A stretch of 64,000 nucleotides of DNA from Promethearchaeota archaeon (GTDB lineage Archaea > Asgardarchaeota > Lokiarchaeia > Sigyniarchaeales > SOKP01). The DNA lies in NCBI GenBank assembly GCA_048938855.1, contig JBHLLT010000001.1, positions 160,024 to 224,023 of the forward strand, given 5' to 3'. A program made the position numbers and the translations under genes. This document shows, in pieces, positions 20,101 to 22,177 of the stretch. How positions within the stretch are numbered: position 1 is the first letter of the stretch; every line of letters starts with the position of its first letter. The notes below the pieces were generated by a model that worked only from the letters and a program-made list of their open reading frames with translations, made no database searches and was not told where the DNA came from.

Positions 20101-22177
20101 AGAATTTTTCAGAAAAATCGAAAGTGTTTATGTGAAGGATGCTGTAAATTTTACCCTTGTCTATACTGATGCACTTAGAGGAACTAAAATTGTCAACTTA
20201 AAGTCTCAATATTATGTGTGGGAACGTTATGATAGTGAGGGGAATGTAATTGAAAATGGTTATGGAGATATAATTACTGCTATAGATAATACTTATATCT
20301 TGGATTTTAACACAGAATCCAGAGCTTTGGGTGATTATCTCTTAATTGTTACTTTAGAAAAACAAAATTATGATTACAAAAATGCAATGATGCTTTTAAC
20401 CATTAAGAAAAGAGAGATCAGTGAGCCTATTTTGAGTAATAATTTTCAAAATAGGAAAACGAGTGCAGTAAAAGGTACTCCGGTTCCAATTCAAATAATC
20501 CTGACTGATCCTACTAAATATGATAGTAGATTATATAACGCTACAATAACTCTAACAATAAGGGGAAATCTCTATAATTTTACGGAAATTGGAAATGGAA
20601 CCTACATATTAAATTTTCCAACATATAATATAAATGCCTTTTTCGCATCAAATACACTCACAGGAACTATAAATATTACAAAGGAAGACTATATTTCTCA
20701 AGAATTTAATATTATCATTGTTGTAGAGATGGAACAAATCTTTCCTGGTGTTCCTACATTCTATTTCTTACTAATATTATCTGCAGTTCTTGCTATAGTT
20801 GGGAGCATTGTAGGATATAGAGTTGTCCATTATGCTAAAATACCCGCGTTCGTAAGAAAAGTAAGGGAAATTGAAAAAATCATTAAAAAAGATAAAAATA
20901 TTTCAGAATCACTTTTATATAACGACAAAGAAGTATTAATAGCAGAAATTTTGAAAAAGGACTGGGCTAAAATTGGGTTATCAATAGAAAATGTACTTGG
21001 AATAACTGTTGAAAAAGAGGAAAAGAAATCAATATCAAAAAGAAGGGTCTCTAAAATAACTGAAGTACACGATAAGAAACCTCTTGGTTTATTAGTGATG
21101 AAATGGGACGAAAGAATTGGGACAGAAATTTTAGCTAAATATCCAAGAGATATTCAAATTTCAGAAAAAACTTTAATGCAAGTTTATAGCACTCATGAAT
21201 ATAGTGGAGAAAAAGGAACAATAACATTATCCGCAGAAGTAACAAATGTATTATCTTATTATACAGGACCAGAACAAGGATATTATCTCATTTTACTCTT
21301 AAATACAGATGACGACCCTGATCTTTATGAAGGAGGAATGGCTGACATTTTAAGTGATGTGTTAGAAAATCTTGAAGATGATTCTTATATTCAGATGATT
21401 CCAACACTTTTTCAGCGTATATCATTATATCCATCACTTAGTTCTGAAGAAATTCTTGCGCTAGCTTATCAAAACAAGGTTATAAGAACAATTATCAATT
21501 TGTTAAGAGAAGATGGAGTTATCACTAAATCAGAATTAAATATATTACTCAAAGATAAGTTTGTAGAGGGATTTTTCGATTTGGATGCAATTTTAACAGA
21601 ACTTATAAAACTAGAAATTTTAAAAGTTAGTTCTGTTAAAAATATTCCCTCAGAACTAATTTTACTTACTACTGATATTTTTATGGTAAGAGCTCCGCCT
21701 CTTAATTTGCTAGATAATCCGGCTAGTCATGGTTTACCTTCTCAATTTGCTAAGGAATACTCTAATGATGTTAAAGAATTTTTCCAGAATTATCGACCTA
21801 CAGAAGAAGATAATGTGAAAATTGTTGAGAACATTGTTAATCCACAAGTATATGAAACCTTAAAACTTTTAAGGACTGCAATAGTTACAAGGCAAGATCT
21901 TGAAAAACTTAGAAAGAAAGGAGTTGAAGATGTTTATAGTGTTTTGAAACTACTTTGGGATAACCAGATGATTAAGGTATTTCATGATGAGAAAAATATT
22001 GAATACTATGTTCTTCTTTCTGATTTTTATATTGATTATATTTTTCCAAAATACTTATTGAAAGCAGTAAAAATTGAATATGAGCAAAAATCAAAAAATA
22101 AGAGAGTCTTGATTGAATATCTTAAAAACCTTGAAGAAGCTTATCTTAAATTAAAAGACATGGAAAAAATGAAATAA
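14159..22177 (+). CDS. Giant type I membrane protein A (2672 aa): 3x[DUF2341-like + LamG/ConA-like], beta-rich stalk, TM helix, cytoplasmic longin/uDENN-like and winged-helix-like domains
   Basis: N-terminal hydrophobic signal; three ITIDH...DGDDIAF...WLDHEIE...MYYGN units, each followed by a LamG-like module ending (F)xGxxDE(V/I)RxS; TM PTFYFLLILSAVLAIVGSIVGY at ~20750-20820; tail with GLLVMKWDERIGTEILAKYP. Confidence 0.8.
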   Translation: MKIYRKLSEYKINSLLILLIFLIIPAILSTPLLTFQTSQRNEDEENIITPKLSSPSHANYFSFYKEITIDHNKVAGSSTYTDFPVLISITDTDLRVKSQVDGDDIAFAYDNNWLDHEIELFDQAFNSTHARLVAWVLVPSLSGITDTVIRMYYGNSTMNSQQNPSGVWIKDYRGVWHLDEQTGGTDAIIDSTSYSNDGTDVNSPQLGQNGQIYDSVGYTDSSGQRIQVADDTSLDISNELTVEAWINPSYNNKWMTIVSKMAGSWGGGLLSDFDIYVAVNDWGTFDIGLANPSDSYNEWQSSVYFSTGTWQHFVFTYQSSTSMGRIFVNGVFMESHDFGIGTIGTNGNPFYIGFNRGWTGEVFDGLIDEVRISSIPRSSGWIYTEYQNQNDPSSFYSIGSEKIVASTPPNADFFTFYKIISIDHNRVAGTGSHSNFPILLSLIDNDLRYHTQSDGDDIAFSIGGDWLDHEIELFNQSYSATHAQLIVWVQVPFLSTSTDTIITMYYGNSTMSSRENPNGVWSSDYVDVLHLKEDPSGTIYDSTSYSNDGSCLGSMNSLDLIPSKIGEGFELDGVDDMISVSESSSLDSISDGGTLSIWVKWVDPTAGRYQRVMTTSNRFLANPTPPPTLIQSDGFEWAVQPDGDHFFYPWGGDSIDYNLAINPFANSYWHYLVLTLKYSTKSVIIYLNGSALSLYTENVPTHWTQLANLDDWLWGGNNIATGDQFQGIFDEIRVSNVAHSSDWILTEFNNQNDPASFYSIGAEQLVLTNPVHSNFFNYYKIITIDHTKVNGIGSHINFPLLISLLDEDLHYDVQTDGYDIAFASDGKWLDHQIESFNQDYSGTEAELIVWVRIPFLSTAFDINITMFYGNSTMSSRENPSGVWISDYVGVWHLTEDPSDTPPQIKDSTEPPTDGSSSGTMSSSDQVTGIIDGALDFDGFDDYVDFGNTGEVQITGEFTVQAWFKADIFIDNDYLVAKHDGSGFRGWDLSLDDDPGINPDGWIMFRYSPDGTNMVTTGYERVTVGKWYQVVGIFKPNDYSKFFLNGTQVAITTTGVPSSMNDPPYPLRIARRSDSSASWFDGIIDEVRISNVARSNGWITTEYNNQFDPLSFYSVGLEQTSKPMIYVDAQINALDLYGNLLPNVTISMYKFTQLIERGITNINGIVSFTNIIEGDYNFTATIRSNLGDIVEIVNSTSQAIMLDQPFQTVDLVCDVSSHFFEIIDLDLNPVESGWIIVGNATHPLQKCIIDPTGHTTFWWVNVSPSTYNYTIYYKNPNYNPPIIELASGDITTVNATIQVQVELTTVGLIVQTINAPITPVSGAKLKLTLNNPLGPSIVNLTTNINGQANLRWLTSLEIGGDYSLQIEFFGANKLFNQSVGGPAEVNNISFTVTNQDYLEFRILIDLSKFQTELISLNPTDYIEVEWGTLLKLRMLFNVSKVEVGYESLLGPVYADSMSYTLLLGGSTVISGAFSMEENNEGRHFVDIDTKLLDSAESYIIIISAYKSGYTIPSDKIFQLNILENEVELNQSSNDDSDTQTYWSENVDITLNSYGSNSETLTVENLVFQSIDHEFDFLISDIETHWNLSKIVLNLYNISWNVGITDINVTIEDPYGYIYFFDNSTHLGWDYAQGTWTGIVLNLNRASRTNDNKFEFLISGTFDNTIDIIADAYFIRDKINVQYSKFNISNEISLLTKGEGWVISNITFEIFDCYDSSDWSVVDLSLTDLNITTNEGFTYSLDYGYPDGTGLLSIADSFIYPIGNQFLFTVETDPNIIFNAIIKVEYIQGFYRNQFLETLNCTKTERGITNGGSFQISASGSNWSEHEAILWIKNIKSGPTYYFPSEIAMNITIGGQKYSISDYASGIGTLSLSGFSKEQLLHAVIETSLMVDFTLLLSIQYSRLASYEIIGSLIYTIVEAPSIYGSVQYDSDLGYYLKTIDTSLLDADEYTVRFTVNKPHYKMTAKDFKLIVLNRPTLLNQSSEFFRKIESVYVKDAVNFTLVYTDALRGTKIVNLKSQYYVWERYDSEGNVIENGYGDIITAIDNTYILDFNTESRALGDYLLIVTLEKQNYDYKNAMMLLTIKKREISEPILSNNFQNRKTSAVKGTPVPIQIILTDPTKYDSRLYNATITLTIRGNLYNFTEIGNGTYILNFPTYNINAFFASNTLTGTINITKEDYISQEFNIIIVVEMEQIFPGVPTFYFLLILSAVLAIVGSIVGYRVVHYAKIPAFVRKVREIEKIIKKDKNISESLLYNDKEVLIAEILKKDWAKIGLSIENVLGITVEKEEKKSISKRRVSKITEVHDKKPLGLLVMKWDERIGTEILAKYPRDIQISEKTLMQVYSTHEYSGEKGTITLSAEVTNVLSYYTGPEQGYYLILLLNTDDDPDLYEGGMADILSDVLENLEDDSYIQMIPTLFQRISLYPSLSSEEILALAYQNKVIRTIINLLREDGVITKSELNILLKDKFVEGFFDLDAILTELIKLEILKVSSVKNIPSELILLTTDIFMVRAPPLNLLDNPASHGLPSQFAKEYSNDVKEFFQNYRPTEEDNVKIVENIVNPQVYETLKLLRTAIVTRQDLEKLRKKGVEDVYSVLKLLWDNQMIKVFHDEKNIEYYVLLSDFYIDYIFPKYLLKAVKIEYEQKSKNKRVLIEYLKNLEEAYLKLKDMEKMK
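14328..17520 (+). repeat. Three ~350-aa DUF2341-like/LamG repeat units in protein A
   Basis: Units begin at ~14328, ~15385 and ~16475 with a conserved (Y/F)FxxYKxIxIDH motif. Confidence 0.85.
17548..20890 (+). repeat. Copy 1 of a ~3.3-kb direct repeat (stalk + TM), matching 25702..29047
   Basis: Long identical DNA runs, e.g. caaccattcgttcaaatctcggggatattgttgaaattgtcaattc; offset about 8154-8157 nt. Confidence 0.9.

Follow-up and report, generated by a model that had tools for sequence, protein, structure and literature searches.

A longin and double winged-helix module on giant Asgard surface proteins and its gene linkage to longin–Arf-like GTPases

What might a giant archaeal surface protein do with a cytoplasmic tail that resembles parts of eukaryotic small-GTPase regulators? 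The question is raised by a 64,000-nucleotide stretch of the genome of a Loki-type Promethearchaeota archaeon (GenBank assembly GCA_048938855.1, contig JBHLLT010000001.1, positions 160,024 to 224,023; hereafter the window), in which two adjoining genes on the + strand, A (14159..22177) and B (22343..30331), encode paralogous proteins of 2672 and 2662 amino acids (aa) with a cytoplasmic module fused to a single-pass surface protein. A prediction made from the sequence alone had described the module as a longin domain with tandem winged helices of the NPRL2/uDENN kind, acting on a small GTPase. It missed that the module is normally a free protein and that a candidate GTPase partner is encoded next door. 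On balance, we favour the view that the module, tethered to a receptor, serves to dock the longin + Arf-like GTPase or GTPases encoded nearby; binding, the direction of regulation and signalling across the membrane are the parts of this view that we infer.

Open reading frame (ORF) calling, translation and Pfam searches show the same layout in A and B: a hydrophobic N-terminal signal/anchor, three DUF2341 + Laminin_G_3 cassettes, a stalk of ~1100 aa, one transmembrane (TM) helix and ~450 cytoplasmic residues. The head of A (aa 1-1100; 14159..17458) carries the signal/anchor and three DUF2341 + LamG cassettes, recognised by Pfam as three DUF2341 and three Laminin_G_3 domains. It is followed by a beta-rich stalk with many glycosylation sequons (aa 1101-2194; 17459..20740), the TM helix with a Lys/Arg-rich stretch behind it (aa 2195-2222; 20741..20824) and a juxtamembrane linker (aa 2223-2307; 20825..21079). 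N-X-S/T sequons number 36 ahead of the TM helix and 1 behind it, a split that fits an outside-to-inside topology. Together with the signal/anchor, the single basic-flanked TM helix and the DUF2341/Laminin_G_3 head, this bears out the proposal of a cytoplasmic tail on a giant ectodomain. The best explanation is that A and B are type-I surface glycoproteins in which the LamG/DUF2341 heads vary, the stalk is conserved, and a single TM helix leads into a juxtamembrane linker of helical structure. A PGF-CTERM/archaeosortase signal was considered for the FPGVP...TM segment and rejected, as 450 residues lie beyond the helix.

The boundaries of the module come from its relatives. The last 448 aa of A, used as a phmmer query against 1.8 billion cluster representatives, matched 356 clusters at E ≤ 1e-3 and 97 at E ≤ 1e-30, well outside what chance would give. 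Most of these are free-standing proteins of 355-385 aa, and their residue 2 aligns with residue 2308 of A. We therefore set the module as residues 2308-2672 of A (21080-22174) and 2299-2662 of B (29237-30328); the start first proposed, at 21070, was 10 nt too early. The strings on which the original prediction rested all occur at their reported places in the frame of the 2672-aa ORF (14159-22177): GLLVMKWDERIGTEILAKYP from aa 2310 (nt 21086), IINLLRED... from aa 2445 and TLKLLRT... from aa 2567. B has matching elements at aa 2301, 2435 and 2558 (nt 29243-30331).

An AlphaFold2 model of the module, built with an alignment of 51 sequences (A, B and 49 free members), reached a pLDDT of 95.1 and a pTM of 0.89. 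It predicts a longin-type fold, linker helices, a three-helix unit with hairpin (module residues 133-196), a strand with helices (199-252), a second such unit (255-312), and a strand with a two-helix hairpin (315-364). The longin domain (residues 1-120; 21080..21439) follows the superfamily topology beta-beta-alpha-beta-beta-beta-alpha(-alpha) over residues 1-119, with DSSP elements E3-10, E14-21, H29-42, E46-52, E55-61, E68-75, H80-96 and H103-119. Superposed on solved longins, it gave Z scores of 10-11.9 over 107-123 residues, at rmsd 2.7-3.5. In a wide structural search the top longins were VAMP7 (Z 11.2), NPRL2 (11.0), Lst4 (10.8), a SEAC Npr subunit (10.7) and DENND1A (10.6), with a Lokiarchaeota longin at 10.4 and FLCN/FNIP2 at 10.2-10.4. 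In a second comparison four NPRL2 chains led (Z 11.6-11.9, 119 residues, rmsd 2.7-2.9), tied with VAMP7 (11.5). The longin fold that had been proposed is thus certain at the level of the model; its subfamily is not, the top Z scores being ties.

The two winged helices proposed for the tail are likewise borne out, by a separate model of the C-terminal 268 residues (pLDDT 96.5) and by structural superposition. Winged helix 1 (residues 133-197; 21476..21670) is MarR/cullin WHB-like (Z ~7.4, rmsd 1.8-2.2, ~65 residues). Winged helix 2 (residues 255-322; 21842..22045), taken with the helices that precede it, is ArsR/SmtB-like (Z 8.0-8.3, rmsd 2.5, 79 residues); it also has weak sequence matches to ArsR-type winged helices (E 1.7e-4, profile against PDB sequences). 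A C-terminal strand and two-helix hairpin close the AlphaFold2 model (residues 323-365; 22046..22174). Pfam searches of the tail, its halves and the 51 family members returned nothing beyond weak scattered helix-turn-helix (HTH) matches.

The module defines a family found across the phylum. Its profile matches 218 of the 301 genomes sampled, including 74 of 90 high-quality ones, and genomes of the window's own family, f1, hold at least six copies each. Database members are all annotated as hypothetical protein and have no Pfam domain; their records are labelled Lokiarchaeota, Promethearchaeota, Helarchaeota, Thorarchaeota or Hodarchaeota, and a search of the ESM Atlas returned unnamed Asgard clusters alone. 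Relatives are also present in the cultured Lokiarchaea Ca. L. ossiferum and P. syntrophicum. The usual form is a free protein of ~365 aa, with which the tails of A and B align end to end (49 free members). Nearly invariant residues of the family are W9, G14, P22, S59, G63, L74, Q124, R204, P206, F235, Y238, L264, R265, L312, P323 and L351; A has all of them but Q124, which is E. Against the family profile, A scores 4.9e-140 and B 3.3e-134.

In f1 and f2, a free module tends to be encoded directly behind the rest of such a protein. In f1, 29 of 30 free module genes directly follow a large ORF that ends in the TM and juxtamembrane segment of A (phmmer E 1e-24 to 1e-30), and at three f2 loci the free module likewise follows an ORF of 1370-2602 aa with this ending. 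Over both families the upstream membrane-protein ORFs span approximately 1200-2600 aa. The window's own genome has three such split pairs on contig C74, at 23015-26674 / 26674-27780, 27945-32333 / 32333-33445 and 35044-38904 / 38904-40019, the middle one with a longin-GTPase gene 48 bp away. Among the matches listed, fused forms are confined to f1 (the window, genomes G210, with five in tandem, G204, G132, G243 and others). In a maximum-likelihood tree the fused tails form one clade (support 100/99) nested within the split forms, which points to a single fusion event. The existence of split and fused forms of one gene pair is strong evidence, at the level of sequence, that the free adaptor would sit on the tail of the membrane protein. 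The five tandem giant genes of G210 (contig C9, 430-465 kb; 2655-2678 aa) are a lineage-specific expansion apart from the A and B clades; a double GTPase gene and one for a roadblock-Ras-like GTPase lie at the borders of this array.

A and B themselves appear to be old neighbours. A-type tails (the window's A, G132, G204, G153) and B-type tails (the window's B, G132, G204, G243) form separate, well-supported clades, and G132 and G204 retain the A-then-B gene order, so the duplication is older than the split of two genera. The two genes have been retained side by side, as expected of an obligate pair, and a heterodimer would be compatible with this pattern. As a separate observation, identity between A and B forms a mosaic: the stalk and TM helix (17459-20824 against 25600-28980) are 88% and 95% identical, the heads 40-46%, and the tails 49-71% (linker 49%, longin domain 71%, winged helix 1 region 54%, winged helix 2 with the C-terminus 61%, and 62% for the module as a whole). 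This suggests gene conversion confined to the stalk.

The tie to a small GTPase that had been surmised is real as a conserved gene neighbourhood. In distant families, a same-strand gene of 285-312 aa, for a ~125-aa domain followed by an Arf-like GTPase, is found overlapping the gene of the free module or no more than ~190 bp from it. The N-domain matches AP-2 sigma, a longin-type fold (E 1.5e-6), and the GTPase domain is closest to Arl1/Arf1 (E ~1e-17); the neighbouring GTPases give SRPRB Pfam matches. Across two sets of five genomes, from ten other families, 7 of 19 full-length modules have such a longin + Arf-like GTPase gene within 1.5 kb. When the search was reversed and started from the best match to the GTPase N-domain profile in 20 further genomes, a module gene was adjacent on the same strand, often overlapping, in 16 (f9 11/11, f14 4/4, f10 1/1). 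This operon context is common to the most distant families (f9, f10, f14, f21, f28 and f3) and is therefore probably ancestral.

The same association is seen around the giant genes. The A-B tandem is flanked by two GTPase genes of the operon-GTPase family, and in the window the surface-protein and GTPase contexts coincide. The downstream candidate partner (30794..32674, + strand) consists of an AP-sigma-type longin, an Arf-like GTPase and a coiled-coil tail. The upstream, divergent candidate (11796..13853, − strand) consists of a longin + Arf-like unit, a roadblock-like segment and a Ras/Rab-like GTPase. The former and the N-terminal half of the latter are orthologues of the operon GTPases at 26-45% identity. 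Small GTPase genes occur about once per 52 kb in the window's genome, and three of the four best genes of the module-adjacent type lie 198, 460 and 48 bp from module genes. The head-to-head arrangement of double GTPase and giant-gene array is also kept in G210, which belongs to a different genus.

Several findings weigh against reading this linkage as a dedicated partnership. The profile used in the reverse test was built from module-adjacent GTPases, and the sample consists of related genomes; the counts thus make the cases look more independent than they are and describe a conserved arrangement, not independent events. Phyletic co-occurrence is uninformative, with the GTPase N-domain profile matching 282 of 301 genomes, module-less families included; two families have the module and give no match to that profile, and many module paralogues have no GTPase gene nearby. 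An hhalign comparison of the module profile with the GTPase N-domain profile found no similarity. GTPase genes of strain MK-D1 have also been reported as generally not lying in operons with longin genes (Tran et al., PMC10933270).

The GTPase genes show some features of their own. The conserved three-gene clusters of f14 (genomes G114, G091, G060 and G096; loci L092-L095) encode, in this order, a 341-359-aa protein with the same N-terminal longin type, the longin-Arf-like GTPase and a longer module of 521-584 aa, and thus two module-type longins bracket the GTPase gene. In the window, the downstream gene has no ATG, GTG or TTG ahead of the P-loop (30788-31300). In the alignment, the initiator Met of its orthologues falls precisely on an ATT at 30794 (MIREVSIL against ILRQILIY), and the upstream paralogue starts alike at 13853, which points to non-canonical ATT initiation of both. 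In the upstream protein (11796-13853, − strand) the switches of the Arf-like half are degenerate (KPQISA and RDFTGDE against HIPTIG and WDLAGQE in the orthologues), with P-loop and NKQD kept, and the roadblock-like segment joins this half to an intact Ras/Rab-like domain.

As a docking platform, the module could work as follows. The giant proteins would present variable LamG heads outside the cell on a conserved stalk, and their cytoplasmic ends would carry the adaptor in the fused form or recruit it in the split form, as a unit of longin, two winged helices and helical hairpin. The adaptor would dock the neighbouring longin-Arf-like GTPase at the inner face of the membrane through the conserved W-D-x-(R/K)-x-G hairpin face of its longin, probably together with longin-longin pairing, which to our knowledge is a feature of all known longin-GTPase platforms. 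These GTPases have a longin in place of the N-terminal membrane-binding helix of Arf, and the winged helices may offer surfaces on which the tail linker or further proteins could bind. The outcome would be a GTPase switch placed or regulated at sites set by the surface protein. Most longin pairs promote nucleotide exchange, and SRX anchors the GTP form of SRbeta. The adaptor could thus act by accelerating hydrolysis (like C9orf72/NPRL2), by exchange (like most longin pairs) or by anchoring the GTP form (like SRX with SRbeta). In any of these roles, the module would probably connect the cell surface, as an integral part of the protein, with a GTPase switch of eukaryote-like type.

The alternative that survives best is that the module is a true homologue of the NPRL2/NPRL3 or C9orf72-type subunits of GTPase-activating proteins (GAPs), which with a second longin, from the A/B partner or the GTPase N-domain, would form a GAP for the Arf-like GTPase with R12 as a catalytic or auxiliary residue. 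We consider it doubtful. The domain order favours it: in NPRL2/3 at least two winged HTH repeats come after the longin (Levine et al., PMC3747258), and the module has an N-terminal longin followed by two winged helices. NPRL2 chains also head the second longin comparison, GATOR1 NPRL3/NPRL2 chains are the best full-chain Foldseek matches (E 3.7e-4 to 1.3e-3), and the tails of A and B are conserved orthologous tandem partners, as the suggestion of an NPRL2/NPRL3-like heterodimer would have it. The longin Z scores, however, tie with those of SNARE, TRAPP, DENN and AP longins, and the full-chain TM-score is just 0.2-0.26 globally, with Mon1-Ccz1, Fuzzy-Inturned and BLOC-3 (tri-longin exchange factors) following, and then ESCRT-II, DENND10 and C9orf72. 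At the level of sequence, neither the tail nor the 51 family members match Pfam NPR2 (PF06218) or NPR3 at E ≤ 0.01. Folliculin finds no match in the tail, in the 51 relatives or in the window's genome, and no NPRL2/3 or longin-GAP chain appears in the profile search of PDB sequences at E ≤ 10. PF06218 was also absent from the search of the window's genome, a result of little weight, as that search matched none of its 14 control genomes either. The C-terminal half by itself has no NPRL2/3 among its listed structural matches, which are ESCRT-II VPS22, Nse3/MAGE, STK19, ArsR, MarR and cullin WHB; ArsR, MarR, cullin WHB and ESCRT-II match the winged helices no worse than anything from NPRL2/3. The comparison with NPRL2/3 is partly supported: it is fair for domain order and for the best structural matches, which are statistical ties, and not for sequence membership. 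Membership in the uDENN/DENN group, which had also been put forward, falls away, the longin being followed by two winged helices and helical linkers and by no DENN part; DENND1A/B match over residues 1-120 alone.

The same reading draws on the beta1-beta2 hairpin of the longin. In the model, W9-D10 close strand 1 and G14 begins strand 2, and across the 51-member alignment W9 is kept in 46, D10 in 39 and G14 in 47 (76-92%); other conserved longin positions are P22, H39, S59, Y60, G63, L74 and E78. Place and spacing agree with W33-D34-x3-G38-P39 of C9orf72, an Arf GAP subunit in which W33 and D34 lie at the ARF1 interface and W33G/D34K nearly abolishes GAP activity (PMC8213707). A GP motif is common to longin GAP subunits and some Asgard longins (PMC12290439). 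Of the F/W-D-x-x-x-G-P start noted in the prediction, the W-D-x3-G part is supported; a proline follows G14 in just 7 of 51 members. As to the conserved arginine finger proposed as a check, no arginine of the longin domain reaches 70% conservation in the 51-member alignment, and the nearly invariant R204 and R265 fall outside this domain. At position 12, the candidate, 26 of the 51 members have arginine and 7 have lysine. R12 is kept in f1 and f2 (hairpin WDERxG) and in f10 and f21 (WDNRLG), replaced by K in f14 (WDDKVG), and lost in f9 ([W/L]DD[F/Y]QG), a large family in which it is F or Y and which retains the GTPase operon. This pattern leaves no family-wide arginine finger, and the loss in f9 argues against a universal arginine-finger GAP.

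Rather less likely is that the module links the tails of the giant surface proteins to cargo, sorting machinery or the cytoskeleton, as an adaptor comparable to the tandem winged helices of ESCRT-II and the longins of SNAREs and AP complexes, with the GTPase neighbourhood secondary. ESCRT-II VPS22 (2zme_A) is indeed the best Foldseek match of the C-terminal half as a tandem unit (E 1.9e-3, prob 0.98), VAMP7, Sec22 and AP-sigma longins score equal to GAP longins, and in the subfamily with the greatest expansion (f1, f2) the direct tie is to tails of membrane proteins and not to GTPases. The VPS22 match is nevertheless weak (TM-score 0.20-0.24); neither it nor the Nse3/MAGE and STK19 matches behind it pass 1e-3, and Pfam EAP30 has no match in the tail or in family members. 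The GTPase operon of the most distant families also speaks against this explanation, as does the position of the best-matching GTPase orthologues in f1, which are still found on either side of the giant genes.

A membrane-tethered transcription factor, whose winged helices would bind DNA once released from the membrane, is very improbable and was ruled out on charge and gene context: single winged helices are closest to ArsR/SmtB and MarR regulators (Z 7-8) and a few members have weak HTH_5, TrmB or TFIIE Pfam matches, but the module is acidic (net charge -16; family median -11), the predicted recognition helices LDAILTELIK and VYSVLKLLWD are not basic (-1 and 0; family median 0), the nearly invariant residues are hydrophobic or outside these helices, and family members normally occur free in the cytosol, encoded in one operon with a GTPase. 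DNA binding, which the original prediction had named as an outcome that would overturn it, is thus unlikely.

As a docking platform, the module can be set beside several known systems. NPRL2/NPRL3 (yeast Npr2/Npr3) are the longin subunits of GATOR1/SEACIT, the GAP for RagA/Gtr1, and share with the module the longin followed by repeated winged helices (PMC3747258), the best structural matches, paralogous partners and a genetic tie to a small GTPase of the Arf/Rag-like group. The module differs from them in lacking sequence membership, a family-wide arginine and any DEPDC5-like partner that we have seen, and in its association with a giant single-pass surface protein, of which it is either a fused part or the product of the next gene. 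Its candidate GTPase is Arf-like with an N-terminal longin, whereas that of NPRL2/NPRL3 is a Rag with a C-terminal roadblock. With C9orf72-SMCR8 and FLCN-FNIP it shares a longin whose beta1-beta2 hairpin bears W-D-x3-G, the element with which C9orf72 contacts ARF1 (PMC8213707, PMC12290439), and an Arf-like substrate class, if the candidate partner is the right one. It departs from them in having two winged helices in place of DENN, in mostly lacking the proline of GP and in giving no Folliculin Pfam signal. SRalpha SRX-SRbeta and MglB-MglA also pair a longin/roadblock platform with an Arf- or Ras-like GTPase at the membrane, and SRX and MglB are among the structural matches of the longin domain (Z 8.4-9.2). 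These platforms have no winged helices and are not on surface proteins, and SRbeta is anchored by a TM segment of its own. Plexins, single-pass receptors of eukaryotes that contain a GAP domain for small GTPases, offer a functional analogy only: like A and B they have a large region for recognition outside the cell and a single TM helix, and their cytoplasmic part is directed at a small GTPase, as that of A and B may be. Their folds are unrelated to the module, and no homology is implied.

A longin of this general kind in Asgard archaea is not new. 'NPRL2-like longin domain' clusters (asCOGs) are recorded for these archaea (Liu et al., 10.1101/2020.10.19.343400; used in PMC9834061), a point that also favours the GAP-homologue explanation, and these clusters probably overlap the module family. 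Asgard longins of FLCN/SMCR8 type are likewise indicated in another study (PMC12290439). The consulted part of the asCOG account makes no mention of tandem winged helices, of giant TM surface proteins fused to or paired with such a longin, or of an operon with a longin-Arf-like GTPase, and our literature search found no description of a double winged-helix adaptor family, of giant TM surface proteins as its fusion or pairing partners, or of such an operon.

Small GTPases are numerous in Asgard archaea, as are proteins with longin or roadblock domains, and regulators are hard to match with their targets because the genes are said not to sit in operons (PMC10933270). Against this background, the module offers a concrete and repeatedly conserved trio of surface-protein tail, longin/winged-helix adaptor and longin-Arf-like GTPase, in which the occurrence of split and fused genes itself records the physical link between tail and adaptor. 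Through this trio, the long-standing question of the function of Asgard small GTPases, and of their place in the cell, becomes directly testable. The trio is also a candidate forerunner of eukaryotic longin GAP complexes and of receptor-coupled GTPase signalling. In a bolder version, ligand binding by the heads of A and B would be relayed through an NPRL2/NPRL3-like longin heterodimer to a dedicated Arf-like GTPase, and the free adaptor + GTPase operon would be the ancestral core of the longin GAP complexes GATOR1, C9orf72-SMCR8 and FLCN-FNIP. We think this unlikely; if true, it would amount to a prokaryotic transmembrane receptor-to-small-GTPase pathway.

The window, with a G+C content of 29%, sits on contig C34 of a 3.95-Mb genome in 93 contigs, and its genes are Asgard-typical, including several Ras/Arf-type small GTPases. 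Just upstream of the double GTPase, four ORFs of 761, 262, 163 and 250 aa (7135-11594) have no Pfam match. Downstream of the A-B tandem, a 2122-aa ORF with many MIT-like and TPR repeats (39003-45371, + strand) lies where both GC and AT skew are very strong (0.2-0.3). The next gene named is a ThiF-type E1 (45511-47103), a UQ_con E2 gene is located at 48941-49462 (− strand), and the E1, E2 and MIT/TPR genes together make up a eukaryote-like neighbourhood of ubiquitin/ESCRT flavour.

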